Assembly: GCA_044892525.1 (NCBI GenBank)
Contig: CM097885.1
Location: 14,138,001 to 14,202,000, forward strand
Length of the DNA: 64,000 nt
Reading direction: 5' to 3'
Source: Schmidtea polychroa
Taxonomy: Eukaryota
The notes beneath the pieces are model-generated. The model was not told the origin of the DNA and did not search any database. It worked only from the letters and a program-made list of their open reading frames with translations. This document shows, in pieces, positions 12,367-60,800 of the stretch; position 1 is the stretch's first letter, and each line of letters starts with the position of its first letter. The position numbers and the translations under genes were made by a program.

Positions 12367-12897
12367 TATTACTCTTAGAGCGTTTCTATAGTAAATCTGA
12401 CCCTCTGAATTCAAATATCGACGAAGTGTGGTGTTAAATTATTACTTGTAACTTTTTATTTATAATTACGATATGCAATCGTTATCTTATTGTGGTTGTG
12501 TACATATCTAACTCTAAATGTTTATTTGCCACTATAAATTCTTATATAATAAAATCAATATATAATATTGACAATTTATCAGTAGTTTATTAATGATATA
12601 TTTAAAATGGAAAATTAAGAATTTTATGTAAAAAACTTTTATTATATTATTTTGTTTACCAGCTTTTCTTTTATACAAATTTTGACTGATAGCAGCACGT
12701 TTTTATTTCTAAAACATTTACATCATGATCTCATTAAATTGCTCACTATTAACCACCTAAATAAGCATTTTATATTTAATTTTTAATTAAAAAGATTGTA
12801 AATAAATCTGAGTGAATAAATTAAAAAAGGCTTCAGTAAATGATAAAATAACAAAAATAAAAACATGTATTATAACAAAGTAACATCAATAACAAGA

Positions 12898-16874: not shown

Positions 16875-16914
16875 TTTAGGATCGGTCTGAATTTAGCCGG
16901 GTCATTTAAAATTT

Positions 16915-16940
16915 GTATTATTTATTATTATTATTTATTG

Positions 16941-16988
<48 letters not shown>
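16915..16988. repeat. (ATT)n microsatellite
   Basis: Direct reading. Confidence 0.9.
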
Positions 16989-23300: not shown

Positions 23301-25054
23301 TTAATGGGACACTGATAAATATGATCTCATCATATGTGAATCGAAAACAGAAAGATTGGGACGACTTCATAAAGCCGTGTCTGTTTGCCTACAGAAATGC
23401 AGTAAATCAAAGTACAGGAGAGACCCCTTTTTACTTGATGTATTTAAGGAAAAATAATATGCCGATTGATCTCAAATTCCAACCACCAATTTCACAATAT
23501 ATGGAGATACCCGATTATAAAGCATTGATGCAAGAAAGAATGCAGTCAGTATGGACTAAAGCCGGTTTGACAATAAAGCACAACCAAGAGAAATATAAAG
23601 AATCATACGATAAAAAAGCACATGCGCATGGCATAAAGATTGGAGATCTAGTATATCTGAACAGACCGGAACCTCTCAAAGGTTTATCGCCTAAATTGCA
23701 AAGACCATTTAAAGGACCCTACAAAGTGTGCGACACCACCGAAACCAATTTGAAGTTATTACCATTCAGGAGTAAAAAAGCTAACCCGATGATTGTGCAT
23801 GCAAATCGATGTAAACTAGTGCCAGAGGAAGATGAATCTAGATACCCCTTAAGATCCAAGCAGAATAAAGTAACGGGTCAAACAAAATTGAAACAGAAAT
23901 TCACGAAAAATCCAACACCAGTCAGCTACATCAATAAGATATTATATGTAGCAATAATGCTGATGTTAGTAACAGTTGCGAGCGGCAAAAAGATTGATTT
24001 ACCATATGCGGTAAACAAAATCCGAGGAATGGAGAAAATACATATATATTCCACTCTAACAAATATAGTATGGAGCTGTAAATGCGAGATCGCAGACCAA
24101 ATAGAAATTATTAATTTACTAGACAATACGGCACCAGTGGTAGAACTGAATTATGATAAAGATATAGTTGCGGTACGAAAGTTAAAGCCAAATTACAAAT
24201 ACCAATGGCTGTTGAGACAGAACATGTCAATGTGGTACACGCAAATTCCGATAGAAGTGCACACAAAAGAGATGCGAAACTTGATCGAGATAGAACCAGA
24301 GATAAACGGAATCAATATATATTGGAAGCCAGTGGACTTGGTGAAAGTGCGAATCACATTTCAAGGGTTAAATGTCGACACCCTTAACTCGCGAAAATCA
24401 TTTATCCGCTACGAGAAATTGAAAATGAATCAAAATTATTCAGTTAATGCGAACTACTACGAGAACATATGCCTCGAAAATGGAACGGTAGTGAGAAACC
24501 AATGGTCACGATTTAAGAGTGAGACCCAGTCTATCTATCTCAGAGACGAGTCAAATCGTATAACCCTGAGTGTTGGAAATGGACCGGTAACGATATATAG
24601 AAAATCAGGAAATGATGAAAGAGTTGTTATTATCTACAAACAAAAAACCCTGACTATATTAGATGCCGGTAATCATTTTTTTACACTTTACACTTCTGAT
24701 TTAGAGACGGCATGGGAATTAACAGTTAAATATCAGCGATGGATAACCGATCCAGGCAGATGGCAAACAGTTTTCGTGGAAGTCAAGACAATCAATGAAT
24801 CGAAACGAAAATCATATACAACCACATCACCTCTCCAATTACCGACCCAAGAGACGACAAAACCTAACTCAAACAAACTAATGATGATAAATTCGGATTT
24901 GACAGTCAACTATTGTGAATATCTCATTTACATTTTAATAACAGGTTTTCTCATCTTATCAATAACATTCATAATCATCACCATCTTGATATGTGTAAAA
25001 GAGAGACAACTAACTATCCTTCAACCACCATCATATTATGAGACAAGACTGTAA
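17396..25054 (+). CDS. Uninterrupted 2552-aa polyprotein remnant: Bcl-2-like, SP plus chuvirus-like glycoprotein plus TM, protease, RT, RNase H, integrase, SP plus ectodomain plus TM
   Basis: WIANNGGWENL; WLMISVIMLLGII..LVAYDCS; LVDSGS; LPFGL..YIDD; TDAS..EKETLA..YTDH..ADAMSR; HHCC; MDILGP..TDQG..VERFN; FKGPY; ILYVAIMLMLVTVASG; C-terminal YLIYILITGFLILSITFIIITILICV. Confidence 0.93.
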   Translation: MDNNNVEIKTEVVDDPGEIDQEINELQRLETMENEEMRSENEVTRDIEEMSTDNRILPNIDEMKSEENFVETKNDIAICRKKQNDAEIESLSLDKSSETERLDESNETERILKSLVTELYLLDETETEDDTSEGEERVVKRLATELKRRLPSIIKRNYEEKEFCEEAVIEDLTRTELDRDVILTALAYIILEIGIYGCLENDSSKSLIKKATEMTNKYLARWIANNGGWENLIQKAESPKTETVRKKGKLAFPWLMISVIMLLGIINTTNSLVAYDCSQTEMGRVYSLVNVAECSDAYPVKLKVTNPVKYYVYQESGFRRAKVRECTVKRTTFVFYCGKWSHSSMVKMQSIPRPIEIIPENCLAAFQTGQLKINADIKLQAKLNHKIRETVTVRGIIKSNGDCQGEPYKVDDAIIDKAVVVEEYMSELREFDGSFDDDTGKLQTHPFCNMKQSSCQTGESILVYDVDTKKCNLVQLKSMSFKEITGEQIREKPEKIRMDPATSTTTRITPLRMKDTPTVLMSTSEEDGMRFLRKETKTKCGQSVYETNYKGIYVSQKMITEAQTNIHAGDIKLTNYFNNKIDYLFHFGQNTVENVYREVIINDCNLNKEILRNRMAMAITNPNLVAPMLIAENGVFARIFGEALYSYKCKAVPVKLTKYDQCTNELPVNLNGKLRFMEPVTRILLEEDTKPKVLQCNRLLAPLYRLTPESWIALPDHREVKTPENLELTELQYLVNFTSLEKLSQSGIYSNEDIEEARRNLLFPSKKERVIMEMVDTILPSGSGKVNYEYLLTPDHYKKATYNTMKKIWGKFMFIGQACAGLIGIYVICVVIKVIISQVLSTHRLYAITGWSWKLVIGCIPLLARFFITHHQYQELEILKARILKKKKVSYASTTPSRDENNDNDNEGDSAPLYVDNQELSGMNKEALRTYQILKEPLLNASSVDTFTKLCIPKSFMQPAPVYPVDRLREMKPVENIALQCEGMVGERIEPSSAEIERKNMLGLPCNYSMMTLTKRGKQPRIFIQMNKHKVEALVDSGSSHTIVSENVLNAKEKRRIKPTDEIVRSLSKNELNIIGQLNVIFHIGDRIIAHDALIMKGSPVRCLIGMDLLEQLDGVSLDLKTGNLIAGETGEIIHRAGEVFVNQTLTIPPQSEMVYCANTMSVDNGDFIFEPNQTLVEKYDLPICDEVVKVKNQIVPVHITNSSKKPVQLHPKTKLGKLSKMSIETNCKIPRNVKVYKEPEVVSNDLNEMQKKEFTKLLRKYRDIFAKHEYDLGLTNVIEHEIPLLDETPIKIKPYRIPYVHQDESDRQITAMKEFGIIRDSASPFSSSIVIVKKKDGDLRFCVDYRKLNQVTRKDTYPIPVPQEMFDQMGEARYFTVIDLNKGYNQFRVKEEDRGKTAFSDGKGLYEFNVLPFGLTGAPATFQRGMNYVLRGIRHALVYIDDIIIFSNDFEEHLKDVETVFKRLKSAKLKIKPSKCEWGKAEVIYVGHIISRRGLQTNPDNIKKVEEYPVPKDADEVRQFLGLASYYRKFIKDFSHIAQPLNTLLKKNNKFIWGQMQQNAFNTLKEKLVTTPILRCPDFTKQFILMTDASNVALGAVLGQKFEGEKDHVIAYASRSLRPHEKNYSTIEKETLALVYGITTFRQYLLGRKFTVYTDHNPLQWLMKHRDSASKLIRWSIALQEYDFEIKYRTGKANANADAMSRIPENNSEGTPEKVEGTIFAAIKAVNDMSELQNDQENDSELKQFMEQAVKIRKEQDWKRLTDANSKYVIHNGILKCWKNGEALIIIPAKHRDALLMQYHDGALGGHLSTRKTLSRLKLKYFWPTMEQDVKNWCNSCKVCITRRNTGKKIKVPLKPMPVPAAPMEMTAMDILGPLPETTKGNKYIVVFCDYFTKWPEAYAIPNQKADTIARIFVENIIFRYGTPKKLLTDQGKNFQSEMFKSITDLFGIWKLNTSPYHPQTDGLVERFNGTLINMISSYVNRKQKDWDDFIKPCLFAYRNAVNQSTGETPFYLMYLRKNNMPIDLKFQPPISQYMEIPDYKALMQERMQSVWTKAGLTIKHNQEKYKESYDKKAHAHGIKIGDLVYLNRPEPLKGLSPKLQRPFKGPYKVCDTTETNLKLLPFRSKKANPMIVHANRCKLVPEEDESRYPLRSKQNKVTGQTKLKQKFTKNPTPVSYINKILYVAIMLMLVTVASGKKIDLPYAVNKIRGMEKIHIYSTLTNIVWSCKCEIADQIEIINLLDNTAPVVELNYDKDIVAVRKLKPNYKYQWLLRQNMSMWYTQIPIEVHTKEMRNLIEIEPEINGINIYWKPVDLVKVRITFQGLNVDTLNSRKSFIRYEKLKMNQNYSVNANYYENICLENGTVVRNQWSRFKSETQSIYLRDESNRITLSVGNGPVTIYRKSGNDERVVIIYKQKTLTILDAGNHFFTLYTSDLETAWELTVKYQRWITDPGRWQTVFVEVKTINESKRKSYTTTSPLQLPTQETTKPNSNKLMMINSDLTVNYCEYLIYILITGFLILSITFIIITILICVKERQLTILQPPSYYETRL

Positions 25055-30014: not shown

Positions 30015-31055
30015 TGTTGAGGTCCGTAAATTAAAATTGAAAATTTAAATAAAATTTAGAATAATAATTCAAATGGAAAGTAAGCGAGGAAAAAAGGCAA
30101 ATAAAAGCGGGATCGTGCACAGAATCAATAGTAAAGGAAAGTGCGATGGAAACAGTATTAGAAAATGCAAAAAGCAATTACGAAAGGCGAGAATCCGGAA
30201 ATCCGAGAAAAATCAATAAATGGAAAAATCATCGAAATCGAATGGGAAAAACGGGACAGGTATAGATTAGCTAATGGTCAACAAGATGATGGTCAGGGAT
30301 TTATCAGAAAAGGGTTAGGAAGGGTCGAAAAACATTCAAACGTATGAAAACAGAAAACGTTAATTAATTAATTAATTGGCTAATGGAAAACCCGAGCCAA
30401 TGGAGAACCCGAGAGATAAAGGAAACCCGAGCTGGGTAAACAAGAAGAAAGGCAAACAAAAGGAAGATTTGGGCCCATTAGCTTGACACAATGATTAATG
30501 GGAAAAGAGTAAGGAGAAGATAGCGCGCGTAGGAAGACCGGTAGGGCCATTAATTATCTGGATTCGTTGGACCATTATGGATGACAGCCGAAGCAAACAC
30601 GTAGGAGAAAATGTCAAACGAAAGATTGGCTCGGCAATAACCATTTGTCATCCTGATTTCGAGGAGTATATAAGCAAAGGGAAAATCAGAGAAAATCGGC
30701 ATTTTGCCTCAGGTAGGTTAAGAAGAATTAGACTGTAGGAAAAGTGGTAAACGAATTAGGGAAGTAGGGAAAAGAAGAAATAGAATTAAGAATACGGAAA
30801 GGCGAAAAGGGATCAAACCAAAGAGAAACCGAGGAAAAAGAGAGTCGAGATAACTAAAGGATCAAAAGGTGAATATTGTTTGTTTGCAAAGCATCAACGC
30901 CGAGCGGAGAATCGTATAAAACTTTGATTGGTAATTGTAACGTGATAATAAATTGTGAACTTGTTGTTTCAATATACGTTGGGTCGTTCATTGTTTTACT
31001 TTAAAGAACACCAGGAGTCAGAGAGAACCGACTTGAAATAATCCAAAACCCAACA
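30015..31055 (+). repeat. Shared LTR (1041 bp): 3' LTR of copy 1 and 5' LTR of copy 2
   Basis: TGTTG..CAACA; preceded by PPT and followed by PBS; TATATAA 30667, candidate donor CAG|GTAGGT at 30713, AATAAA 30947. Confidence 0.96.
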
Positions 31056-31062: not shown

Positions 31063-31081
31063 TGGTGAGCCCGACGTGATT
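31063..31081 (+). promoter_or_regulatory. Primer-binding site, tRNA-Trp
   Basis: TGGTGAGCCCGACGTGATT, one mismatch from the canonical tRNA-Trp PBS TGGTGACCCCGACGTGAT; 7 nt after the LTR end. Confidence 0.88.
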
Positions 31082-31303: not shown

Positions 31304-31455
31304 TTAGAAGTTTGAAAATAGTGTTAACGAGATTATAAAAGGCTATTATTGGGAGATTTAAAAGAAGTTGAAAAGTAATTTTAAATTATTGTTTAACGTT
31401 TGAAGTTTAGCTCAAAGTGAACCGATACAACCTCAGAAGTCAGAAACAAGTCCAA

Positions 31456-34400
31456 ATGGCAAATGATAATGCTGTTATGCCTCTCAATAGAGAGATGATT
31501 GACTTCGCAAGTTGCCAGAAATTACCCGTCAATCAATATGGAGGAGACCCTGTTGAATTTGCAGATTTCATGGGAGATTATTATATGTACGCCTCAGCAT
31601 ACGGATGGACACAAGCCATTATGGTTCAGAGATTCCCACTCTATCTGAAGGGTGCGGCAAGAGAAGCCTGGCAGCAAGTCGACAAACGAAATGTTGGCAA
31701 TGATTGGACAAAATTGAAGGATGCAATGGCACTGAAACTGGTTGGTGGAGATATCAAAAGAATCATGCGACAGAAATTTTATAATCGAGTTCAAGGTCCA
31801 GATGAATCGGTCAGTGAGTTTGCTTATCATCTGACCACTTTAGCAGATAAAGCCTTTGAAGTTAAACCAGACCAAGCAGAAATGGCCAAGCAGGTTAAAG
31901 AGCTATTAGAAGATCAGTTTATAACCGGAGTCCACTCCGAAATCAAAAAAGCCCTATGTTATGTGGATTTTTCCAATTTTGATGAGCTCGTGAAGAAAGC
32001 CATGAAGATAGAGCTGAATTTAAAAAGTGCAAAAAGATCAGATGCTTTTGGAGTTAATGTGGAGAGACGTGAGCGATCAATTACGCCTGTGAGAGCACCA
32101 TGGGATGAAAAGAAAATAAATCAAATCAGTAGTCCAATTTTGAGACCAAATAATAGATTTCAAGCCAGTAGATCAGCCATGAACGTACAATCAAATGGAC
32201 AGGTAAATAATCCTCAATGCGAACATTGCAAAAAGTCTGGACACTACTCAAATCAATGTTGGTTCAAATATGGGAGAAATCCCAGCCCTAACAAGAGATT
32301 TACAGAAAACAAACGGATCAGCAGTGATGTCGAATGCTATCGATGCGGAAAGAAAGGGCATATTAGCAGAAACTGTTTTACCAGATCAAGGTCATCGTCA
32401 ACGTCACCTTCACCACAAAGGGACAAAGTGAATACAAATGGACAGATCCAATGTCATTCGTGCAAGGGATACGGCCACATGGCTCGATCATGCCCAAGGA
32501 ACTCAGAAAGATTCAACAGACCTATCTTAAAGAAATCAATCAGATTCCAAGAAGATATGCCAAACACTAGTAATATGACATATGCTCAGAGAGAAGAATT
32601 TCAAGACAAAATGGAAAAGGAATTTCGAGAAATGCGACAGAAGCTGAACAAACTAGTGGCGAAATTTGAATCAGATGAGGAAACTGAATCTCATATGATA
32701 ATGGGAACCGTGTCAGAAGGTGAGGGAAAACCTGCCACGAAAGTGCGAAAGATCGCATCAGATGAGAATCCGACTACACTGTTAGCACGAGTCGAAAAAT
32801 GGCTTGAGAAAATGGAAACTGACAACTCCCAGTTGAAACGATGGATCGCAGAACTCAGTGTGATGTCACTAACCCAAAGCGAACTAAAGAGAGCCATAAA
32901 TTTATGTGCAAAGTTATTCAAAGGAAACAGAGACGATGAGATACGTAAACAAATGCAAAAGTTTGGCAAGGCTTTACGGTCAACAAGGGATTTAGCTGAT
33001 ATCATAGTGGAAACGACGGGACTTGATAATGTGAAGTGCCAATTCCGTGTAAATGCCTACGGACAAATCAGAGAGCTAAAGGAGCGAATACTGCGTCAAT
33101 ACAGTGGATGGCAAGTGCAATTAAAATATGAGAATCGATGTCTGGAAGACGAAGAGTACTTAGTAGATTGCGGTCTGATACCAGGCTGGAAAAATAAAGT
33201 AAATGTTATTAATGCTGTTAATACTTTGAATTCAGACAGACAAAATTGGGAAAAGATTCTAGCAGATTTACAAGATACCCTGTATGCAGGGAATAGAGAT
33301 AAAATTAATGCGAGTATCGACTTCATAATGAGCATCGAAATGGATCGAGACATGAAAGAAGGGTTGTTTGAATGCATCGTACCGTATACGAATAAACCGA
33401 CGAGTTATCAGGCAAAACTAAAAGAGGTAATCCGAAAACTAGGACATGATTATGAGGCGGCAGACGATAGTGCGAAGTCTTTGATAATAGCGTTAAATAT
33501 TGCGGATCAAAGGATTGAATATTATCAGGAACATTGGAGTGTAAAAGCAAAGAAAATACGACAAAAAGCAGCGGAGATATTAGGTAATGAAGGAATTATC
33601 GTGTTGACGTTCAAAGGACGAGAATTGGATGATGACGAATATTTATTAAACTACGGATGTAACCCAAATTGTATTAATAATGTGTACGCAACAAAACAAA
33701 GTGATGAAATGGAAAGAGATGCGGTAATAGTACCGTTTTGGCCTCTATATGAGGAAATGGATAATAATAATGTGGAGATTAAAACTGAAGTTGTAGATGA
33801 CCCAGGAGAAATTGATCAAGAAATTAATGAGTTGCAGAGATTAGAAACAATGGAAAATGAGGAAATGAGATCGGAAAATGAGGTTACAAGGGATATCGAG
33901 GAAATGAGCACCGATAATAGGATACTACCGAACATAGATGAGATGAAAAGCGAAGAGAACTTCGTTGAAACGAAAAATGACATTGCGATATGTCGGAAAA
34001 AACAGAATGATGCGGAAATTGAATCTTTGAGTTTAGATAAATCGAGCGAAACTGAGCGTTTAGATGAATCAAACGAGACTGAACGAATATTAAAAAGTTT
34101 AGTTACGGAATTGTACTTGTTAGATGAAACTGAAACAGAAGATGATACTTCGGAGGGGGAGGAAAGAGTTGTAAAAAGATTGGCAACGGAATTAAAGAGG
34201 AGATTACCGTCGATAATTAAAAGAAATTATGAAGAAAAGGAATTTTGTGAGGAAGCAGTGATTGAGGACCTAACACGAACTGAGTTGGATCGAGATGTAA
34301 TATTGACAGCGTTAGCTTATATAATATTGGAGATTGGTATTTATGGTTGTCTGGAAAATGACAGTTCAAAATCATTGATAAAGAAAGCTACGGAAATGAC

Positions 34401-37400
34401 GAATAAATATTTGGCTAGGTGGATCGCAAACAATGGCGGATGGGAAAATTTGATACAAAAGGCTGAGAGCCCAAAAACCGAGACAGTGAGGAAAAAGGGA
34501 AAACTCGCATTTCCATGGTTGATGATTTCTGTTATTATGTTATTGGGAATAATAAACACGACGAATTCATTGGTGGCATACGACTGCTCCCAAACCGAAA
34601 TGGGAAGAGTATATTCGTTGGTAAACGTAGCAGAGTGTTCGGATGCATATCCAGTAAAATTAAAAGTGACAAATCCAGTAAAATATTATGTATATCAAGA
34701 ATCGGGATTTCGACGAGCAAAGGTGAGAGAGTGTACAGTGAAACGAACTACTTTTGTATTTTATTGTGGAAAATGGAGTCACTCATCGATGGTGAAAATG
34801 CAATCGATACCTAGACCGATAGAAATAATTCCAGAGAATTGTTTGGCAGCCTTTCAAACAGGACAGTTGAAAATCAATGCAGATATCAAACTACAAGCAA
34901 AGCTTAACCACAAAATCCGTGAGACTGTAACCGTGCGAGGGATAATAAAGTCGAATGGTGATTGCCAAGGAGAGCCATACAAAGTAGACGATGCTATAAT
35001 TGACAAAGCCGTGGTTGTGGAAGAGTACATGTCAGAATTAAGAGAATTTGATGGATCATTTGATGATGATACTGGTAAACTACAAACACATCCATTCTGC
35101 AACATGAAACAATCTAGCTGTCAGACAGGAGAATCAATCTTGGTGTACGATGTCGATACCAAAAAGTGCAATTTAGTGCAATTGAAGTCAATGAGTTTTA
35201 AAGAAATAACGGGAGAACAGATCAGGGAAAAGCCTGAGAAAATAAGAATGGATCCAGCAACGAGTACAACAACGAGAATCACACCTCTACGGATGAAAGA
35301 TACTCCAACAGTGTTAATGTCAACCTCGGAGGAAGATGGGATGCGATTCCTGAGAAAAGAAACTAAAACAAAGTGTGGACAAAGTGTCTATGAGACAAAT
35401 TATAAAGGTATATATGTATCTCAGAAGATGATTACAGAGGCCCAAACAAACATACATGCCGGAGATATTAAGTTGACAAATTACTTTAATAACAAAATAG
35501 ATTATTTATTTCACTTTGGTCAAAATACTGTTGAAAATGTGTACCGAGAAGTTATTATAAATGATTGCAATCTCAACAAAGAAATACTCCGAAATCGGAT
35601 GGCAATGGCTATAACCAATCCTAATTTGGTAGCACCAATGTTAATTGCAGAAAATGGAGTGTTCGCCAGAATTTTCGGTGAAGCACTATATAGCTATAAA
35701 TGTAAAGCGGTACCAGTTAAACTGACAAAGTATGACCAATGCACCAACGAGTTACCAGTGAATTTAAATGGAAAGTTGCGATTTATGGAGCCTGTAACAC
35801 GAATCTTACTGGAAGAGGACACGAAACCGAAAGTATTACAGTGCAATAGATTGTTAGCACCATTATACAGACTAACACCAGAATCTTGGATTGCATTACC
35901 AGATCATCGAGAAGTAAAGACACCGGAAAACTTAGAATTGACAGAATTACAATATCTGGTAAATTTTACGTCGTTAGAAAAATTGTCGCAAAGTGGAATT
36001 TACTCGAACGAAGACATTGAGGAAGCTCGCAGAAACTTGTTATTTCCATCAAAGAAAGAAAGAGTAATAATGGAAATGGTAGATACAATTCTCCCAAGCG
36101 GAAGTGGGAAGGTAAATTATGAGTATTTATTAACTCCAGATCATTACAAGAAAGCGACGTATAATACAATGAAAAAGATCTGGGGAAAGTTTATGTTCAT
36201 TGAACAAGCGTGTGCCGGATTGATTGGAATTTATGTAATATGTGTTGTAATCAAAGTAATAATATCGCAGGTCTTATCAACACACAGATTATACGCGATC
36301 ACAGGTTGGTCGTGGAAACTAGTAATTGGTTGCATACCATTATTGGCTAGATTCTTCATTACTCATCATCAATATCAGGAGTTGGAGATACTCAAGGCTC
36401 GAATATTAAAGAAGAAAAAGGTGAGCTACGCTAGTACTACCCCTTCAAGGGACGAGAACAATGACAATGACAACGAGGGTGATAGTGCACCGTTATATGT
36501 TGACAATCAAGAACTAAGTGGAATGAATAAAGAAGCGTTAAGAACCTATCAAATCTTAAAAGAGCCACTGTTGAATGCGAGTAGCGTAGACACGTTTACA
36601 AAACTGTGTATACCAAAATCATTTATGCAACCAGCACCAGTGTATCCAGTTGATCGATTACGAGAGATGAAACCAGTGGAAAATATCGCATTGCAATGTG
36701 AAGGAATGGTAGGAGAGAGAATTGAGCCTTCTAGCGCAGAGATCGAGAGAAAAAACATGTTAGGCTTACCATGCAACTACTCAATGATGACATTAACAAA
36801 AAGAGGAAAGCAACCCCGAATATTTATACAAATGAACAAACATAAAGTGGAAGCTTTAGTTGATTCGGGATCTAGTCACACAATAGTATCGGAAAATGTA
36901 TTAAACGCGAAGGAAAAAAGGCGAATAAAGCCTACCGACGAAATAGTGAGGTCATTATCAAAAAATGAATTAAACATAATTGGACAACTTAACGTCATAT
37001 TCCATATTGGAGATCGAATAATAGCGCACGATGCGCTCATAATGAAGGGAAGTCCAGTACGATGTCTGATCGGCATGGATCTATTAGAGCAGCTGGACGG
37101 AGTCTCACTTGATTTAAAGACAGGTAATTTGATAGCAGGAGAAACAGGAGAAATAATTCACAGGGCAGGTGAAGTGTTTGTGAATCAGACATTGACAATA
37201 CCACCACAATCGGAGATGGTATATTGTGCAAATACCATGAGTGTGGATAATGGTGATTTTATATTCGAACCAAATCAAACGCTAGTCGAAAAATATGATT
37301 TACCGATATGTGACGAAGTTGTCAAAGTGAAAAATCAGATAGTACCAGTCCATATAACGAATAGCAGTAAGAAACCGGTTCAGCTACACCCAAAAACAAA

Positions 37401-40400
37401 ATTGGGAAAATTATCAAAAATGTCTATTGAAACAAATTGCAAAATACCAAGAAACGTCAAAGTGTATAAGGAGCCTGAAGTGGTAAGCAATGATTTAAAT
37501 GAGATGCAGAAAAAGGAATTTACAAAACTGTTGAGAAAATACCGAGATATCTTTGCTAAACACGAATATGATTTAGGTTTAACCAATGTAATTGAGCATG
37601 AAATACCGTTATTAGACGAAACTCCAATAAAAATAAAGCCATACAGAATCCCCTACGTTCATCAAGACGAAAGCGATAGACAGATTACAGCAATGAAGGA
37701 ATTTGGAATAATTCGAGATAGCGCGTCGCCATTCTCCTCATCAATAGTGATAGTTAAGAAAAAGGATGGAGACTTACGATTTTGCGTAGATTATCGGAAG
37801 CTAAATCAAGTTACGAGGAAAGACACTTATCCAATTCCAGTACCCCAAGAAATGTTTGATCAAATGGGAGAAGCACGATATTTCACTGTTATTGATTTAA
37901 ACAAAGGGTACAATCAATTTAGAGTAAAAGAGGAAGATAGAGGAAAGACGGCGTTCTCGGATGGCAAAGGACTGTATGAGTTCAATGTGTTACCATTTGG
38001 ATTAACAGGAGCCCCAGCTACATTCCAACGAGGAATGAATTATGTGTTACGAGGAATTCGACATGCATTGGTATATATCGACGATATAATAATATTTTCA
38101 AATGATTTTGAAGAACACCTGAAGGATGTAGAAACTGTATTTAAACGGCTCAAAAGTGCAAAATTAAAAATCAAACCATCGAAATGTGAATGGGGCAAAG
38201 CAGAAGTGATTTATGTAGGACATATAATATCACGGCGAGGGTTACAAACTAATCCAGATAACATCAAAAAAGTGGAAGAGTACCCAGTACCAAAAGATGC
38301 CGATGAGGTTAGACAATTTTTAGGTTTGGCGAGCTATTACAGAAAATTTATAAAAGATTTCTCTCATATCGCACAACCATTGAATACGTTACTAAAGAAA
38401 AACAATAAATTTATTTGGGGACAAATGCAACAAAACGCTTTCAATACATTAAAAGAGAAATTAGTAACAACTCCTATATTAAGATGTCCAGATTTTACAA
38501 AACAATTTATCTTGATGACGGATGCAAGCAACGTTGCATTGGGTGCGGTATTGGGACAAAAATTTGAAGGTGAAAAGGACCATGTAATAGCATACGCAAG
38601 CAGATCATTGAGGCCTCACGAGAAAAACTACTCAACGATTGAAAAGGAAACGTTAGCGTTAGTGTATGGAATTACTACTTTTAGACAATATTTATTGGGC
38701 AGAAAATTTACTGTTTATACAGATCATAATCCATTACAGTGGTTAATGAAACACAGAGATTCAGCCAGTAAGTTAATACGATGGTCAATTGCCCTCCAAG
38801 AATACGACTTTGAGATTAAATACCGGACAGGTAAAGCTAACGCGAATGCAGATGCAATGTCGAGAATCCCAGAAAATAATAGTGAAGGGACACCTGAAAA
38901 AGTGGAAGGCACTAGATTCGCAGCAATCAAAGCTGTTAATGATATGTCTGAACTTCAAAATGATCAGGAAAACGATAGTGAATTAAAACAATTTATGGAA
39001 CAAGCGGTCAAAATAAGAAAAGAACAAGACTGGAAATGACTTACAGATGCAAACAGCAAATATGTAATTCATAATGGAATACTTAAATGTTGGAAAAATG
39101 GGGAAGCATTAATTATTATACCAGCCAAGCACAGAGATGCATTACTGATGCAGTATCATGATGGAGCGTTGGGAGGTCATTTGTCAACGCGCAAGACGCT
39201 ATCAAGATTAAAATTGAAATACTTTTGGCCGACAATGGAACAAGACGTGAAAAATTGGTGTAACAGTTGCAAAGTATGCATCACCCGCAGAAATACTGGT
39301 AAAAAGATTAAAGTACCATTAAAACCGATGCCAGTACCTGCAGCACCAATGGAGATGACGGCAATGGATATTCTGGGACCATTACCGGAAACAACAAAAG
39401 GAAACAAATACATTGTTGTTTTTTGTGACTACTTTACCAAATGGCCAGAAGCATACGCTATTCCAAACCAAAAAGCAGATACGATTGCTAGAATATTTGT
39501 GGAAAACATAATATTTCGCTATGGTACTCCAAAGAAATTGTTAACTGATCAAGGAAAGAACTTTCAAAGCGAGATGTTTAAATCAATCACAGACTTATTT
39601 GGAATTTGGAAATTGAATACGTCACCATATCATCCACAAACTGATGGATTGGTGGAACGATTTAATGGGACACTGATAAATATGATCTCATCATATGTGA
39701 ATCGAAAACAGAAAGATTGGGACGACTTCATAAAGCCGTGTCTGTTTGCCTACAGAAATGCAGTAAATCAAAGTACAGGAGAGACCCCTTTTTACTTGAT
39801 GTATTTAAGGAAAAATAATATGCCGATTGATCTCAAATTCCAACCACCAATTTCGCAATATATGGAGATACCCGATTATAAAGCATTGATGCAAGAAAGA
39901 ATGCAGTCAGTATGGACTAAATCCGGTTTGACAATAAAGCACAACCAAGAGAAATATAAAGAATCATACGATAAAAAAGCACATGCGCATGGCATAAAGA
40001 TTGGAGATCTAGTATATCTGAACAGACCGGAACCTCTCAAAGGTTTATCGCCTAAATTGCAAAGACCATTTAAAGGACCCTACAAAGTGTGCGACACCAC
40101 CGAAACCAATTTGAAGTTATTACCATTCAGGAGTAAAAAAGCTAACCCGATGATTGTGCATGCAAATCGATGTAAACTAGTGCCAGAGGAAGATGAATCT
40201 AGATACCCCTTAAGATCCAAGCAGAATAAAGTAACGGGTCAAACAAAATTGAAACAGAAATTCACGAAAAATCCAACACCAGTCAGCTACATCAATAAGA
40301 TATTATATGTAGCAATAATGCTGATGTTAGTAACAGTTGCGAGCGGCAAAAAGATTGATTTACCATATGCGGTAAACAAAATCCGAGGAATGGAGAAAAT

Positions 40401-41322
40401 ACATATATATTCCACTCTAACAAATATAGTATGGAGCTGTAAATGCGAGATCGCAGACCAAATAGAAATTATTAATTTACTAGACAATACGGCACCAGTG
40501 GTAGAACTGAATTATGATAAAGATATAGTTGCGGTACGAAAGTTAAAGCCAAATTACAAATACCAATGGCTGTTGAGACAGAACATGTCAATGTGGTACA
40601 CGCAAATTCCGATAGAAGTGCACACAAAAGAGATGCGAAACTTGATCGAGATAGAACCAGAGATAAACGGAATCAATATATATTGGAAGCCAGTGGACTT
40701 GGTGAAAGTGCGAATCACATTTCAAGGGTTAAATGTCGACACCCTTAACTCGCGAAAATCATTTATCCGCTACGAGAAATTGAAAATGAATCAAAATTAT
40801 TCAGTTAATGCGAACTACTACGAGAACATATGCCTCGAAAATGGAACGGTAGTGAGAAACCAATGGTCACGATTTAAGAGTGAGACCCAGTCTATCTATC
40901 TCAGAGACGAGTCAAATCGTATAACCCTGAGTGTTGGAAATGGACCGGTAACGATATATAGAAAATCAGGAAATGATGAAAGAGTTGTTATTATCTACAA
41001 ACAAAAAACCCTGACTATATTAGATGCCGGTAATCATTTTTTTACACTTTACACTTCTGATTTAGAGACGGCATGGGAATTAACAGTTAAATATCAGCGA
41101 TGGATAACCGATCCAGGCAGATGGCAAACAGTTTTCGTGGAAGTCAAGACAATCAATGAATCGAAACGAAAATCATATACAACCACATCACCTCTCCAAT
41201 TACCGACCCAAGAGACGACAAAACCTAACTCAAACAAACTAATGATGATAAATTCGGATTTGACAGTCAACTATTGTGAATATATTTTTTTCGTCCTCGA
41301 GAGAAAAAAAAATAATAGTTAA
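31456..41322 (+). pseudogene. Gag-Ubl-Ubl-Bcl2-like-Env-Pol polyprotein broken by CGA>TGA at 39037-39039 and lacking the final TM
   Basis: ORFs 31417..39039 and 39148..41322 are in one frame; Gag motifs FPLYLKGAAREAW, QGPDESVSEF, DQFITGV; three CX2CX4HX4C knuckles at 32218-32493; copy 1 has CGA at the stop position. Confidence 0.93.
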
Positions 41323-41713
41323 ATAATTATAAGTAAATTAACAAATAATCAAATGAATAAACAAATTGATATAAATAAATAAGTAAAAAAGTGATAAATT
41401 AAATGAATGAATAATAGATAAAAATGAACAAAGTTAAACGAGCAAATAGAATAACTCAAATAAATGTTGCAAATAATGAAATGACTACCTTAAATGAGCA
41501 TTAGAAATAAATAATATGACTGATTAGTAATTAATGAATTAGCATAGCTATATAGCAATGGGTAACCCACTGGGCGAGAGGACAAAATTATAAACAAGTA
41601 AGGAATAATTTCACATTAGTAGTAACAAAGACTAATCGCGAAGAGGGACACAATTACCCCACCCTTTCTAGCATAATTAAAAACAAAGGTATGCTGAACA
41701 TTTATTCAAAGTT

Positions 41714-42015
41714 TTATTCGTCATCAGAGTCCAACAGAACGGGACTTTGGATGCCACAATCCCATTCCCTGCGTACATTGCAAGGCGGGCGTCTTTCAAA
41801 CCTACTGCCTGTATCCACACAGGCAAAGGTACGTTTCAATCCCTTTCGACGCGGTGGTAAAGGGACCCTGAAAAAGAAATTAAAAACCTGTTAGATGGCA
41901 GTTAAATAACCATTGCATAACATCGAGATGTTCAAACTTAGGTTCTGGCACAGCCTAAAATAGTAAGGGTTGAAAAGAAAAAATGAAATAAATACTATGT
42001 AAAACTCCGTACCAT
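41714..42015 (-). CDS. Second copy of the predicted 66-aa spliced antisense gene
   Basis: Same sequence as 26201-26502 (offset 15513); upstream region cut at 42084. Confidence 0.5.
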
Positions 42016-42085
42016 GGCGCCCTCGACAAATAATTAGTGCAGGGAAGTAATTGATTTTAAGAATTACGTAATAAATTAATAAGTT

Positions 42086-45000
42086 AATAATTCACAGGGC
42101 AGGTGAAGTGTTTGTGAATCAGACATTGACAATACCACCACAATCGGAGATGGTATATTGTGCAAATACCATGAGTGTGGATAATGGTGATTTTATATTC
42201 GAACCAAATCAAACGCTAGTCGAAAAATATGATTTACCGATATGTGACGAAGTTGTCAAAGTGAAAAATCAGATAGTACCAGTCCATATAACGAATAGCA
42301 GTAAGAAACCGGTTCAGCTACACCCAAAAACAAAATTGGGAAAATTATCAAAAATGTCTATTGAAACAAATTGCAAAATACCAAGAAACGTCAAAGTGTA
42401 TAAGGAGCCTGAAGTGGTAAGCAATGATTTAAATGAGATGCAGAAAAAGGAATTTACAAAACTGTTGAGAAAATACCGAGATATCTTTGCTAAACACGAA
42501 TATGATTTAGGTTTAACCAATGTAATTGAGCATGAAATACCGTTATTAGACGAAACTCCAATAAAAATAAAGCCATACAGAATCCCCTACGTTCATCAAG
42601 ACGAAAGCGATAGACAGATTACAGCAATGAAGGAATTTGGAATAATTCGAGATAGCGCGTCGCCATTCTCCTCATCAATAGTGATAGTTAAGAAAAAGGA
42701 TGGAGACTTACGATTTTGCGTAGATTATCGGAAGCTAAATCAAGTTACGAGGAAAGACACTTATCCAATTCCAGTACCCCAAGAAATGTTTGATCAAATG
42801 GGAGAAGCACGATATTTCACTGTTATTGATTTAAACAAAGGGTACAATCAATTTAGAGTAAAAGAGGAAGATAGAGGAAAGACGGCGTTCTCGGATGGCA
42901 AAGGACTGTATGAGTTCAATGTGTTACCATTTGGATTAACAGGAGCCCCAGCTACATTCCAACGAGGAATGAATTATGTGTTACGAGGAATTCGACATGC
43001 ATTGGTATATATCGACGATATAATAATATTTTCAAATGATTTTGAAGAACACCTGAAGGATGTAGAAACTGTATTTAAACGGCTCAAAAGTGCAAAATTA
43101 AAAATCAAACCATCGAAATGTGAATGGGGCAAAGCAGAAGTGATTTATGTAGGACATATAATATCACGGCGAGGGTTACAAACTAATCCAGATAACATCA
43201 AAAAAGTGGAAGAGTACCCAGTACCAAAAGATGCCGATGAGGTTAGACAATTTTTAGGTTTGGCGAGCTATTACAGAAAATTTATAAAAGATTTCTCTCA
43301 TATCGCACAACCATTGAATACGTTACTAAAGAAAAACAATAAATTTATTTGGGGACAAATGCAACAAAACGCTTTCAATACATTAAAAGAGAAATTAGTA
43401 ACAACTCCTATATTAAGATGTCCAGATTTTACAAAACAATTTATCTTGATGACGGATGCAAGCAACGTTGCATTGGGTGCGGTATTGGGACAAAAATTTG
43501 AAGGTGAAAAGGACCATGTAATAGCATACGCAAGCAGATCATTGAGGCCTCACGAGAAAAACTACTCAACGATTGAAAAGGAAACGTTAGCGTTAGTGTA
43601 TGGAATTACTACTTTTAGACAATATTTATTGGGCAGAAAATTTACTGTTTATACAGATCATAATCCATTACAGTGGTTAATGAAACACAGAGATTCAGCC
43701 AGTAAGTTAATACGATGGTCAATTGCCCTCCAAGAATACGACTTTGAGATTAAATACCGGACAGGTAAAGCTAACGCGAATGCAGATGCAATGTCGAGAA
43801 TCCCAGAAAATAATAGTGAAGGGACACCTGAAAAAGTGGAAGGCACTAGATTCGCAGCAATCAAAGCTGTTAATGATATGTCTGAACTTCAAAATGATCA
43901 GGAAAACGATAGTGAATTAAAACAATTTATGGAACAAGCGGTCAAAATAAGAAAAGAACAAGACTGGAAATGACTTACAGATGCAAACAGCAAATATGTA
44001 ATTCATAATGGAATACTTAAATGTTGGAAAAATGGGGAAGCATTAATTATTATACCAGCCAAGCACAGAGATGCATTACTGATGCAGTATCATGATGGAG
44101 CGTTGGGAGGTCATTTGTCAACGCGCAAGACGCTATCAAGATTAAAATTGAAATACTTTTGGCCGACAATGGAACAAGACGTGAAAAATTGGTGTAACAG
44201 TTGCAAAGTATGCATCACCCGCAGAAATACTGGTAAAAAGATTAAAGTACCATTAAAACCGATGCCAGTACCTGCAGCACCAATGGAGATGACGGCAATG
44301 GATATTCTGGGACCATTACCGGAAACAACAAAAGGAAACAAATACATTGTTGTTTTTTGTGACTACTTTACCAAATGGCCAGAAGCATACGCTATTCCAA
44401 ACCAAAAAGCAGATACGATTGCTAGAATATTTGTGGAAAACATAATATTTCGCTATGGTACTCCAAAGAAATTGTTAACTGATCAAGGAAAGAACTTTCA
44501 AAGCGAGATGTTTAAATCAATCACAGACTTATTTGGAATTTGGAAATTGAATACGTCACCATATCATCCACAAACTGATGGATTGGTGGAACGATTTAAT
44601 GGGACACTGATAAATATGATCTCATCATATGTGAATCGAAAACAGAAAGATTGGGACGACTTCATAAAGCCGTGTCTGTTTGCCTACAGAAATGCAGTAA
44701 ATCAAAGTACAGGAGAGACCCCTTTTTACTTGATGTATTTAAGGAAAAATAATATGCCGATTGATCTCAAATTCCAACCACCAATTTCGCAATATATGGA
44801 GATACCCGATTATAAAGCATTGATGCAAGAAAGAATGCAGTCAGTATGGACTAAATCCGGTTTGACAATAAAGCACAACCAAGAGAAATATAAAGAATCA
44901 TACGATAAAAAAGCACATGCGCATGGCATAAAGATTGGAGATCTAGTATATCTGAACAGACCGGAACCTCTCAAAGGTTTATCGCCTAAATTGCAAAGAC

Positions 45001-47018
45001 CATTTAAAGGACCCTACAAAGTGTGCGACACCACCGAAACCAATTTGAAGTTATTACCATTCAGGAGTAAAAAAGCTAACCCGATGATTGTGCATGCAAA
45101 TCGATGTAAACTAGTGCCAGAGGAAGATGAATCTAGATACCCCTTAAGATCCAAGCAGAATAAAGTAACGGGTCAAACAAAATTGAAACAGAAATTCACG
45201 AAAAATCCAACACCAGTCAGCTACATCAATAAGATATTATATGTAGCAATAATGCTGATGTTAGTAACAGTTGCGAGCGGCAAAAAGATTGATTTACCAT
45301 ATGCGGTAAACAAAATCCGAGGAATGGAGAAAATACATATATATTCCACTCTAACAAATATAGTATGGAGCTGTAAATGCGAGATCGCAGACCAAATAGA
45401 AATTATTAATTTACTAGACAATACGGCACCAGTGGTAGAACTGAATTATGATAAAGATATAGTTGCGGTACGAAAGTTAAAGCCAAATTACAAATACCAA
45501 TGGCTGTTGAGACAGAACATGTCAATGTGGTACACGCAAATTCCGATAGAAGTGCACACAAAAGAGATGCGAAACTTGATCGAGATAGAACCAGAGATAA
45601 ACGGAATCAATATATATTGGAAGCCAGTGGACTTGGTGAAAGTGCGAATCACATTTCAAGGGTTAAATGTCGACACCCTTAACTCGCGAAAATCATTTAT
45701 CCGCTACGAGAAATTGAAAATGAATCAAAATTATTCAGTTAATGCGAACTACTACGAGAACATATGCCTCGAAAATGGAACGGTAGTGAGAAACCAATGG
45801 TCACGATTTAAGAGTGAGACCCAGTCTATCTATCTCAGAGACGAGTCAAATCGTATAACCCTGAGTGTTGGAAATGGACCGGTAACGATATATAGAAAAT
45901 CAGGAAATGATGAAAGAGTTGTTATTATCTACAAACAAAAAACCCTGACTATATTAGATGCCGGTAATCATTTTTTTACACTTTACACTTCTGATTTAGA
46001 GACGGCATGGGAATTAACAGTTAAATATCAGCGATGGATAACCGATCCAGGCAGATGGCAAACAGTTTTCGTGGAAGTCAAGACAATCAATGAATCGAAA
46101 CGAAAATCATATACAACCACATCACCTCTCCAATTACCGACCCAAGAGACGACAAAACCTAACTCAAACAAACTAATGATGATAAATTCGGATTTGACAG
46201 TCAACTATTGTGAATATATTTTTTTCGTCCTCGAGAGAAAAAAAAATAATAGTTAAATAATTATAAGTAAATTAACAAATAATCAAATGAATAAACAAAT
46301 TGATATAAATAAATAAGTAAAAAAGTGATAAATTAAATGAATGAATAATAGATAAAAATGAACAAAGTTAAACGAGCAAATAGAATAACTCAAATAAATG
46401 TTGCAAATAATGAAATGACTACCTTAAATGAGCATTAGAAATAAATAATATGACTGATTAGTAATTAATGAATTAGCATAGCTATATAGCAATGGGTAAC
46501 CCACTGGGCGAGAGGACAAAATTATAAACAAGTAAGGAATAATTTCACATTAGTAGTAACAAAGACTAATCGCGAAGAGGGACACAATTACCCCACCCTT
46601 TCTAGCATAATTAAAAACAAAGGTATGCTGAACATTTATTCAAAGTTTTATTCGTCATCAGAGTCCAACAGAACGGGACTTTGGATGCCACAATCCCATT
46701 CCCTGCGTACATTGCAAGGCGGGCGTCTTTCAAACCTACTGCCTGTATCCACACAGGCAAAGGTACGTTTCAATCCCTTTCGACGCGGTGGTAAAGGGAC
46801 CCTGAAAAAGAAATTAAAAACCTGTTAGATGGCAGTTAAATAACCATTGCATAACATCGAGATGTTCAAACTTAGGTTCTGGCACAGCCTAAAATAGTAA
46901 GGGTTGAAAAGAAAAAATGAAATAAATACTATGTAAAACTCCGTACCATGGCGCCCTCGACAAATAATTAGTGCAGGGAAGTAATTGATTTTAAGAATTA
47001 CGTAATAAATTAATAAGT
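42086..47018 (+). repeat. Tandem duplicate of 37152-42084 (RT-RH-IN-ectodomain and start of 3' region)
   Basis: Constant offset 4934; same TGA (43971-43973) and same private variants; junction AATAAGT-T-AATAATTCAC. Confidence 0.95.
46648..46949 (-). CDS. Third copy of the predicted 66-aa spliced antisense gene
   Basis: Same sequence as 26201-26502 (offset 20447). Confidence 0.55.
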
Positions 47019-50000
47019 ATAAATACGGCTAAAATTGTCAGAAAAATACGAGTAGCTGTAATTAGAGGTTTGCTTTTAGTATAAATACAAAATCAAAAAT
47101 CAAAAATATATGACCCAAAACATGAGTGTAGGTAGTTGCATAAACAAATTAACGAATTAAAATTAAAAAGTAAATAAGTTAATTTAATATGCAACACGAG
47201 CACTTGCAATCACCGGGGTTTGGCTACCCTGGACAGCGATTGCAAGTGTTCGGTTACTATGAAGGTAGTTGAGGACAGCATGGTAAAAAGAATCACAAAT
47301 ACAAAAAATAACAAAAGATAGTTAATCACTTACGTCCATAGTAATTGAGGGATGGCGTTACTAAAATTCAAAAAAAAAATATGAAAAGAAAAATAAAATA
47401 TAAAATGCTTACTTCAAGATTGGCAAGACAAAACTAACGAAAAGTGGTAAAGCAGAAACTTATATAGAACGCTTATCAGTACAGACTACGTTGACAAACT
47501 ACAGAGTAATTAATTAGAAAGCTTATCAGCACGGCTACGTAAGAAACCACAGGGTAATTAATTATAGAGCCTATCGGTATCGGCTACGTCAAAAACCGCA
47601 GGATAAGAAAAAATTCATTCGGAATATTAATGTTCATCGCAGATACCTTATCAGGCTGAGTAAACAGTCGGTCGGTGCGGGGGAGATTAACTTTTTACCA
47701 TGCTGCGAGCGAAATAAACCAACAAATTATTAATAACAAAAAATTATTTTTAAATCATAATATTAATAATAATAGTAATAATGATGAAAGAAAAAAGAAA
47801 AAAAAATAAAATAAAATAAATAAATTACCTTGCAACTGAGAATAAATTAGGCATATATTCTGCACATAAAAATCGATTTCCGCAATCAATAAAAAAAAAA
47901 AAAAAAAAAAAAAATTTATCAGTGGTTTATCAAAATAAAAGCCCCAGAAAATTCGAGTCACAATGGCTTCCAAAATTCAATATGCGCTCCCTAGAAATAT
48001 TTAAAACCAACCAATTCTGTTATTGGGTTGAGCTAATTTTTGTTCCCGGGTCGATAATAAAATTTGCGGTTGTGTCTGATAAGTAGAATGACTGACCAAT
48101 CAGTTTGAAATATTCATTGGGATGAATTTTGAAGAAAATTGACACACATATACACGCAAGTGCACTCATTTATAGATACACACAAAGAACCCCGATTAAT
48201 GTACAAGTACCGTGAACTACTTAATTGTAAAGACACACACACAGACAGACACACAAGCATGATTCCAACAAATATAATTTAATTTAAAAATTTTTTTTTT
48301 GAAACAACTAAATAACTTTTTATGATTGCAATTTTTTTTATGAATTAATTATTCAAATCAAACTTTATTTTCATCTCAGAGAATTAAATTTTTTTGAGAA
48401 TTTACGTGGATAATAAAATTAAAACAACTTTTGAATGTTAAATGAATATGTAGACCACATAATTTAGCTAATTGAATGTCTTTAATTTGGCCATTTTGCT
48501 TCAATTTCCACTTTTGTATAAAGAAATTATATTAAATCAATTTCACCTTTAATACTTTTTCAGTGTTCTGTACCTCAGAATACTCAAATGAAATACTGTA
48601 CGACACCATTTTTGAGTAATTCACATTTTGCGATTAAATAGTTTCATTTATTTTAATTACCTCCTAATGAAGATTTTTAAGTAAAATAATTTTCACTATG
48701 TTTTCAATTTTTTTTTAAAATAATAATCTAATTAAAATATTTAATATGAATTAATCATGAAACTTAAATTTTTGAAGAAGTTTATGTTTCACGTAGATCA
48801 TCAATTCTTAACATTCCTCAATCATTGCTTCTAACTGCATAGCATTCTGGAACCATATATTCATATCTCTAATAAATTCATCATTTATTCTGAGAGAGGT
48901 TTTAACTACAATAACCTTACCAGACTGTCTTTGGTCTACTCGACCATTTGAAAGATCCTGAAAATGTCTAATATCAGATAATATCTTTAACTGTGTTTCT
49001 GATCAGAATTAAATAATCCTTATATTTCATGCCTTTAATCCTTTAATCCTTCACCGTCGCTGATTGAACGCGAATAATTTGAAAACATATAAATAAAATT
49101 ACGTTTTAATATATATCATTAATATCCTTCACCGTCGCTGATTGAACGCGAATAATTTGAAAACATATAAATAAAATTACGTTTTAATATATATCATTAA
49201 TAAAGTAATAGAGAGACAATTAATGAGAAAAATCAGTTGTGATAAACTGATATAGTTTCAAAATTTCTCCAATAGCAGGAATTATCGAATCGACCAATCG
49301 AATTCGTTTCGGATGACAGAAATATATTCTCTGTGCTGCCTATAAACATACTTGAGCAAAATATTTATCAAAAATCGTATAGAAATTATCGAATCGACCA
49401 ATCGAACTTGAGCAAAATATTGATCAAAAAGATTTTATCATTTTAATAATAAAGAAACAAATTCAATATCAACTTTTTCTAAATGATTTTATTGTTTTGA
49501 CATATTATCAAAGATTTTAGTCCCACGAAATTAGCCTGCCAATTTACAAAAACTGATAAATCTTAAGTTATTACCTGGTAACAAATATAGTCGCTCATTT
49601 CATAACCACTTGGAGTTTCAGTTAATTAATTTTCGGCTTATTTCTGATAAGAATTATGACGCGTAGGCATTATAAACGAGAATCTTAAAAACAATGATTT
49701 ATTTACCATTATTCATTCTTATCAATTTTATTCCAGAAATCACATTAATAATACATAAATTAATCAAAGTCAAAATGTTCTCCATCTATAATGCGGAGAA
49801 CTCGACATTAGTTGCTTATTTTTAGATAACTATTATATTTGGAGTTTATATTAGTTTTCCATATGCAAATTTTAGTTCATTGTTAAGTCTGTTTCCATTC
49901 CCAGACTTTATAAAATTCAGTGACGAAAACAATTGTTTACATGAATATGTTAAACAAAACATTATTAAAAGATAATCTTACAGTGTTATCATTGTAATAA

Positions 50001-50366: not shown

Positions 50367-51407
50367 TGTTGAGGTCCGTAAATTAAAATTGAAAATTTAA
50401 ATAAAATTTAGAATAATAATTCAAATGGAAAGTAAGCGAGGAAAAAAGGCAAATAAAAGCGGGATCGTGCACAGAATCAATAGTAAAGGAAAGTGCGATG
50501 GAAACAGTATTAGAAAATGCAAAAAGCAATTACGAAAGGCGAGAATCCGGAAATCCGAGAAAAATCAATAAATGGAAAAATCATCGAAATCGAATGGGAA
50601 AAACGGGACAGGTATAGATTAGCTAATGGTCAACAAGATGATGGTCAGGGATTTATCAGAAAAGGGTTAGGAAGGGTCGAAAAACATTCAAACGTATGAA
50701 AACAGAAAACGTTAATTAATTAATTAATTGGCTAATGGAAAACCCGAGCCAATGGAGAACCCGAGAGATAAAGGAAACCCGAGCTGGGTAAACAAGAAGA
50801 AAGGCAAACAAAAGGAAGATTTGGGCCCATTAGCTTGACACAATGATTAATGGGAAAAGAGTAAGGAGAAGATAGCGCGCGTAGGAAGACCGGTAGGGCC
50901 ATTAATTATCTGGATTCGTTGGACCATTATGGATGACAGCCGAAGCAAACACGTAGGAGAAAATGTCAAACGAAAGATTGGCTCGGCAATAACCATTTGT
51001 CATCCTGATTTCGAGGAGTATATAAGCAAAGGGAAAATCAGAGAAAATCGGCATTTTGCCTCAGGTAGGTTAAGAAGAATTAGACTGTAGGAAAAGTGGT
51101 AAACGAATTAGGGAAGTAGGGAAAAGAAGAAATAGAATTAAGAATACGGAAAGGCGAAAAGGGATCAAACCAAAGAGAAACCGAGGAAAAAGAGAGTCGA
51201 GATAACTAAAGGATCAAAAGGTGAATATTGTTTGTTTGCAAAGCATCAACGCCGAGCGGAGAATCGTATAAAACTTTGATTGGTAATTGTAGCGTGATAA
51301 TAAATTGTGAACTTGTTGTTTCAATATACGTTGGGTCGTTCATTGTTTTACTTTAAAGAACACCAGGAGTCAGAGAGAACCGACTTGAAATAATCCAAAA
51401 CCCAACA
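50367..51407 (+). repeat. 3' LTR of copy 2 (1041 bp)
   Basis: Matches 30015-31055 except GTAACG vs GTAGCG; no PBS follows. Confidence 0.96.
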
Positions 51408-60545: not shown

Positions 60546-60585
60546 TTTAGGATCGGTCTGAATTTAGCCGGGTCATTTAAAATTT

Positions 60586-60800
<215 letters not shown>

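Follow-up and report, generated by a model that had tools for sequence, protein, structure and literature searches.

Can a single hydrophobic helix serve both as the tail anchor of a Bcl-2-like domain and as the signal peptide of the envelope glycoprotein (Env) encoded immediately after it? This question is raised by positions 34075-34569 (+) of a 64,000-nucleotide stretch of the Schmidtea polychroa genome (assembly GCA_044892525.1, contig CM097885.1, 14,138,001 to 14,202,000), hereafter the window, for which a first-pass annotation had proposed such double use. By its sequence, the element carrying these positions is a Gypsy long terminal repeat (LTR) retroelement, Burro-like in type. The motifs described there are all present, in frame within the open reading frame (ORF) 31411-39039, and the segment ends precisely at the Ser codon (34567-34569) preceding LVAYDC. 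The upstream copy at 17714-18208, which had also been noted, proves identical over its span. We find a domain predicted to adopt the Bcl-2 fold, followed by a helix that is likely the Env signal and likely older than the domain.

The Bcl-2-like domain

Compared on its own, the window domain scored 18.6 bits (E 0.003) against Pfam Bcl-2 (PF00452), under the gathering cut-off of 31.4 bits, and gave E 0.1 against PDB; domains of the sister family (28.3 and 30.3 bits) also fell under that cut-off. We therefore worked from 17 element-derived homologues, eight from the same genome and nine of 89 outside proteins with BH2 ahead of the Env start; no cellular Bcl-2 entered the alignment used for the profile and model. 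PF00452 was matched by 15 of the 17 at E<=0.1 (best 3e-7). Searched against PDB, the 17-homologue profile ranked Bcl-xL first (E 6.6e-6, over BH1 to BH2), and the best 60 of 134 rows were all Bcl-xL or Bcl-2. The alignment-based model (pLDDT 67.7, pTM 0.64) superposed on Hydra Bcl-2-4 with Z 15.7 and rmsd 2.4 Å over 133 aligned residues; the top 33 rows of this structure comparison were Bcl-2-fold, and the first unrelated row had Z 7.2. Foldseek agreed in rank, placing the Bcl-2 family in all 40 best rows listed (best E 0.002). From this model, 34066-34461 is predicted to have the Bcl-2 fold rather than another, its helices bundled about a central, hydrophobic helix 5, in line with the first-pass assignment. 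Chance resemblance was rejected, as the Pfam, profile and model matches exceed chance, and so was insertion of the element into a host gene, since the domain is in frame in at least four families. Top matches in ESM Atlas were also Bcl-2 family, at 0.78 only, and were treated as a lead; word-index searches for homologues found none.

The BH motifs are unevenly preserved. BH2 is intact, its WIANNGGW aligning with Bcl-2 and Bcl-xL, and BH1 reads DRDV instead of NWGR, with Trp, Gly and Arg lost; the first-pass annotation had described both correctly. The BH1 Trp and Gly are missing in all 14 element rows, and among six host-like genes Trp is retained in five and Gly in two. The BH3-like segment that had also been named exists as helix 2 of the model, reading VVKRLATELKRR, but it carries no Asp in the register judged by eye, where the BH3 core motif LxxxGD has a conserved one. 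Given the sequences of BH1, the groove appears non-canonical. Modelled without the alignment, the domain together with 39 aa of a host Bax/Bak-like protein spanning its BH3 (L182:9323-9439) scored 0.01, too low to be read for or against binding. Because the fold is predicted while BH1 and BH3 are not canonical and the Pfam score is under the cut-off, the domain is best called Bcl-2-like.

The helix between the domain and Env

The hydrophobic helix aligns with the viral glycoprotein profile PF24664 from positions 5-6 onward, and stand-alone glycoproteins of ~650 aa open with Met, the same helix and then xxxYDC. With a cut three residues before YDC, 57 of 67 proteins conform to the (-3,-1) rule, whereas 2-37 of them do so at seven other offsets; in the window this predicts cleavage between TNS and LVAYDC, after 34569. 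The n-region ahead of the hydrophobic core is basic (net +4), the residues at -3 and -1 are small, and the position is homologous. Homology thus points to the helix as likely the Env signal sequence by descent and to likely signalase cleavage after ...TTNS, and this half of the proposed double use stands.

The other half fares differently. In twelve polyproteins the helix occurs but no Bcl-2 domain was found (best Bcl-2 profile score 3.0 bits). In a 27-row Env tree with stand-alone glycoproteins as the root, Bcl-2 is missing from the four elements that branch first, and all 11 Bcl-2-bearing rows fall in one branch (SH-aLRT 96) together with five rows that have the helix and no Bcl-2. These placements suggest that the helix is likely older than the Bcl-2 domain and persists after its loss; the simplest reading of the tree would be one Bcl-2 gain before a pre-existing signal, then about three losses. 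The possibility that the captured gene itself supplied the helix was rejected, as the helix is found in early-branching elements without Bcl-2 and outlasts the domain. By five hydrophobicity measures, the 15 rows with Bcl-2 did not differ from the 12 that lack it (p 0.25-0.83), the helix of several Bcl-2-bearing rows contains Asp/Lys or has an uncharged stretch no longer than 8-12 residues, and the distance from BH2 to the helix core varies from 26 to 58 aa. Across families, the sequences give no sign that the helix has adapted to an anchor role. The proposal that it is Bcl-2's own tail anchor, or adapted to anchoring, is not supported: the helix likely arose before the domain, persists where the domain is lost, and is neither longer nor more hydrophobic in elements that carry Bcl-2.

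We also weighed a true double use, in which the helix persists as a tail anchor and the domain is a classical viral Bcl-2 binding the BH3 of host Bax/Bak-like proteins. Such use would suit the full Bcl-2 fold of the model, closest to BH3-binding members, and the single hydrophobic helix after BH2, which is long, hydrophobic and conserved in the window family; some poxviral Bcl-2 proteins, moreover, bind BH3 without NWGR. The relative ages of helix and domain, the lack of any shift to anchor-like hydrophobicity over the 15 Bcl-2-bearing rows, and the DRDV of BH1 nevertheless make it unlikely, and co-translational insertion would put the helix in the endoplasmic reticulum (ER), not in mitochondria.

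Alternatively, Env might be translated from a separate messenger RNA, spliced or internally started, and the helix would then be an ordinary N-terminal signal that never anchors the Bcl-2 domain. The env of other gypsy elements is expressed separately, according to the excerpts of PMC6431247 used here, and in 12 of 17 rows a Met lies at the hydrophobic core or up to 30 residues ahead of it. Such a Met is missing from the other five, however, the sole window Met stands at the core start, past the basic n-region, and the frame is open across the junction in all families examined, all of which makes this route very improbable. The region is also covered by contigs from three sequencing runs that are RNA only by guess; two of these contigs span the BH2-helix-Env junction, and none has a splice-like joint there, but they were not used as evidence.

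Selection and possible roles of the domain

Polymorphism was assessed in 86 aligned family loci drawn from the best-scoring matches; nine loci had been excluded as the window's own copy or suspected duplicates, three of which were not duplicates. Variants of the Bcl-2 domain present in at least three copies comprised 21 nonsynonymous (N) and 24 synonymous (S) changes (N-to-S rate ratio w 0.23), compared with 82 and 40 among singletons (w 0.53; p 0.02). In the same set, w was 0.07-0.09 for Env, 0.09 for the ubiquitin region, 0.32 for the acidic linker and 0.08 for the linker plus helix. Between subfamilies of the sister family, the domain had w 0.09-0.10 (synonymous divergence, dS, ~1.4) versus 0.34-0.43 for the linker after it, and in a third family it is 88-93% identical though dS is at or near saturation. 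Pairwise dN/dS rows upstream of the domain were left unused, with frameshifts in three pairs and dS saturated in several. Judged by these substitution patterns, the Bcl-2 domain is under purifying selection and functional for the element, with looser constraint than Env.

We consider it somewhat probable that the ER tether is a by-product and that the Bcl-2 domain acts on death or stress signalling of the host in a non-canonical way. A host Bcl-2 gene would have been captured once, ahead of an existing signal. The ribosome would make Gag, the ubiquitin-like domain (Ubl) and Bcl-2 in the cytosol; the helix would then engage the translocon, Env would pass into the ER lumen, and the helix at 36208 would halt transfer, with Pol remaining cytosolic. 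A signalase cut after 34569 would leave the helix as the C-terminus of the upstream Gag-Ubl-Bcl-2 chain, which would thereby lie on the cytosolic face of the ER, a tail-anchor topology but in the ER. There the Bcl-2 domain would likely dampen host cell-death or stress signalling through a non-canonical contact, and the element protease or signal peptide peptidase may free it from the tether. We infer this topology (cytosolic Gag-Ubl-Bcl-2, luminal Env, cytosolic Pol) and the order of capture; anchoring of Gag-Ubl-Bcl-2 by the helix is plausible. Since the same topology is expected in elements without Bcl-2, the tether is to be taken as a by-product unless retention is demonstrated.

A precedent for host protection exists in Burro1, whose captured IAP region is reported to be anti-apoptotic and to protect planarian stem cells (Lee et al. 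2026, as cited in the excerpted part of PMC13465017). Rather doubtful, in our view, is the reading in which the captured Bcl-2, lacking NWGR and with its translocating helix kept as an ER anchor, would likewise protect planarian cells and form a second host-serving cargo beside the Burro1 IAP. The fold might instead be structural, a membrane-facing adaptor that keeps Gag by Env for budding at the ER with no effect on apoptosis. Flavivirus capsid anchors, hepatitis C virus (HCV) core and foamy-virus leader peptides are analogues of such a role, which would fit a fold kept while BH1 and BH3 signature residues were lost, a domain covalently placed between Gag and the signal, and purifying selection. 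However, at least five same-branch relatives without the domain retain Gag-signal-Env, and assembly therefore does not need it. Planarian elements have also captured further regulators of cell death, namely BIR/IAP, as published, and the Bcl-2 genes seen here in Maverick-type elements; this argues for modulation of the host and leaves a structural role quite unlikely.

Several observations weigh against a by-product tether combined with a non-canonical effect on the host, or against the steps leading to it. A single-sequence model (pLDDT 65) had no Bcl-2 match (Foldseek best E 0.53; best Z 7.6, to an unrelated structure) and was set aside as poor after the alignment-based model had been obtained; the latter is itself moderate, its tail below pLDDT 60, and none of its Foldseek E-values is below 0.001. 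The BH3-like helix is without the Asp of LxxxGD, and BH1 Gly is missing in four of the six host-like genes too, so that binding might survive without it. The Bcl-2 domain is less constrained than Env, and for helices 4-8 alone the constraint is not significant (p 0.61, 86 loci). The Env tree rests on a quick search, and a tree of the Bcl-2 domains backs a single origin weakly (77/72). The helix of the window's own family ranks among the most hydrophobic in the 15 rows (KD19 1.99, 17 uncharged residues), lies nearest to BH2 (26 aa past it) and shows strong conservation (3 N / 10 S); with this hydrophobicity, closeness and conservation, it could act there as a lasting anchor. Helix 5 of the domain matches the signal in hydrophobicity (KD19 2.13) and may compete with it for membrane targeting.

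The proposed arrangement has counterparts among viruses. Like the element, flavivirus C-prM and HCV core-E1 combine a cytosolic nucleocapsid protein, an internal signal and a luminal glycoprotein, with the cut signal left on the upstream capsid protein; the sequences are unrelated, and those viruses free or shorten the anchor by a second cleavage. Viral Bcl-2 homologues (herpesvirus BHRF1/KsBcl-2, African swine fever virus A179L, avipox CNP058/FPV039, iridovirus GIV66, lancelet adintovirus Bcl2) have the same predicted fold (Z 11-13.4), occupy top rows of a Foldseek comparison and are likewise borne by mobile elements, but they are stand-alone genes with their own C-terminus, whereas the domain described here belongs to a retroelement polyprotein, ends in a likely cleavable Env signal and is without BH1 Trp and Gly. 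As in poxviral N1L, A46 and A52, which work outside classical BH3 binding, the fold is kept despite BH motif loss (Z 7.0-8.4), although the element domain retains a canonical BH2 and is structurally nearer cellular Bcl-2 proteins. To our knowledge, Bcl-2 mimics come mostly from large DNA viruses, and a selected Bcl-2 fold inside a retroelement polyprotein would extend their range beyond these.

Among possible donors, host gene L042, which scored highest by the element profile (36 bits, next 25), was dropped, as the tree does not put the elements beside it. Stand-alone, multi-copy Bcl-2 genes were also seen in Maverick/Polinton-type elements (L046-L060, L167-L172, e.g. L167:4778-5233 -), where they adjoin protein-primed DNA polymerase B, an A32-like ATPase, integrase and a TBP-like ORF; one clusters with L042 (82/69). 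Given that a lancelet adintovirus Bcl2 is present in BFVD, Bcl-2 in Maverick-type elements is a known kind. A Bcl-2-like host gene with intact NWGR occurs as seven near-identical copies clustered on one contig (C4:89.9-90.8 Mb, L031-L037).

The element and its relation to Burro

Burro/GYPSM1 elements (Jurka 2007; Grohme 2018) are giant Gypsy LTR elements of dugesiid planarians, and the first-pass pointer to such elements was apt. The excerpts of PMC6431247 describe a BCL2-like motif preceded by a ubiquitin-like one, with an env in frame between BCL2 and protease; they match this env to mononegavirus glycoproteins and propose interference with host apoptosis. The same excerpts do not mention a signal peptide or anchor in Burro, and the part of PMC11410931 used here names Burro and no more. 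Our literature search returned no paper on a shared signal/anchor in these elements, although Grohme 2018 and Lee 2026 may already cover the helix. With the Bcl-2 domain and its position already published for Burro, most of the novelty is removed; the shared-helix topology, which we did not find in print, is a modest addition. What is added here is structural support, evidence of selection, the uniform loss of BH1 Trp/Gly, a suggested history, in which the signal came first and Bcl-2 was added later and lost several times, and a topology from which an ER-bound product is expected.

Burro1-4 / GYPSM1 were compared by published description, not sequence. As in the excerpted Burro account (PMC6431247), the window element has one ORF with Gag and three CCHC knuckles, Ubl, a BCL2-like domain, env, and protease, reverse transcriptase, RNase H and integrase (PR-RT-RH-IN); this order, LTRs, a primer-binding site (PBS) and a polypurine tract (PPT) are all present. 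Unlike Burro as described there, it measures ~16.5 kb net of a tandem duplication, with 1-kb LTRs (Burro >30 kb), the ORF of its family is ~3,330 aa (Burro 4,873 aa), and no BIR, MATH or ankyrin Pfam match at E<=1 was found in it. Because the layout is that of Burro while the giant size and the BIR/MATH/ankyrin cargo are absent, we file the element as Burro-like, not as Burro1. A compact family without BIR provides a means of testing the Bcl-2 domain separately from IAP.

Pfam gives the domain order as Gag, three CCHC knuckles, ubiquitin-like, Bcl-2-like (weak), Env, PR, RT, RNase H and then integrase (Table 1); the ~200-aa spacer between PR and RT, where Burro has a dUTPase-like region, has no Pfam match. 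The PBS appears similar to that of tRNA-Trp. The window copy has a premature stop at 39037-39039, upstream of integrase. A genome search found at least 150 close copies at 91-100% identity (best 150 of 1,290 candidates), and 10 of these 150 fall within open frames of 3,333-3,336 aa. The Env-start pattern had 693 genome matches, compared with one for a reversed control pattern.

Table 1. Positions of element features in the window
Feature	Position	Strand	Basis and remarks
5' LTR	30015..31055	+	1,041 bp, TGTTG...CAACA; doubles as 3' LTR of truncated upstream copy
Primer-binding site	31063..31080	+	Sequence
Polyprotein ORF	31411..39039	+	2,542 aa from stop to stop; earliest ATG at 31459
Gag: Retrotrans_gag and three CCHC zinc knuckles	31633..32493	+	PF03732 E 1e-8, PF00098; three knuckles read from translation
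Ubiquitin-like domain	33004..33177	+	PF00240 E 5e-6, 26.6 bits, above cut-off
Bcl-2-fold domain (predicted), predicted helices 1-8	34066..34461	+	Profile, Pfam, model; BH1 DRDV for NWGR; BH2 intact
Linker ending in basic RKKGK (signal n-region)	34462..34503	+	Sequence
Hydrophobic helix and c-region, likely internal Env signal, predicted cut after 34569	34504..34569	+	Homology, (-3,-1) rule, Env tree
Env, Monjiviricetes-type fusion glycoprotein ectodomain with its transmembrane helix	34570..36264	+	PF24664 E 1e-92
Env transmembrane helix	36208-36264	+	Hydropathy
Aspartic protease, reverse transcriptase, RNase H	36808..38805	+	Pfam
Integrase zinc finger and core	39118..39636	+	Pfam; in ORF 39040-41322
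3' LTR, polypurine tract just upstream	50367..51407	+	Sequence
Second, identical copy of Bcl-2 domain and helix	17705..18208	+	In 5'-truncated element starting at 17390

Positions 17390-51407 hold two tandem elements with one common LTR, the upstream copy being 5'-truncated (from 17390); the downstream copy carries a 4.9-kb tandem duplication, in which 37152-42087 recurs at 42086-47022. As the 5' and 3' LTRs differ at one of 1,041 bases, the tandem arrangement is either very recent or partly an assembly artefact. Downstream of integrase, in the same ORF (23921-25054 in copy 1, 40279-41322 in copy 2), lie a second signal-like helix and a ~300-aa region without a Pfam match, along with a transmembrane helix at 24935, a PPxY motif and, at the C-terminus, ETRL, presumably PDZ-binding-like; the transmembrane end is missing in copy 2. 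By these motifs, the region may encode a further membrane protein that carries a budding motif.

At least four Env-bearing families (A with subfamilies, B, C and D) have the same layout of Bcl-2, helix and xxxYDC, and an AT-hook-like RGRGRPRK lies upstream in family B and several outside elements. Elsewhere in the window, 54943-55548 (-) is a diverged gag relic (DNA ~71% identical to the family gag), and a further repeat places 12597-16987 again at 56316-60661 (97-99%), with 8691-16185 inverted just upstream of the window. Among the outside proteins, a full element polyprotein (P0025) is filed under a Flavobacteriaceae MAG (metagenome-assembled genome), likely by contamination, and P0001 and P0003 fuse env fragments to host domains (MRP-L47, FAD oxidase), likely as gene-calling chimeras or insertions.

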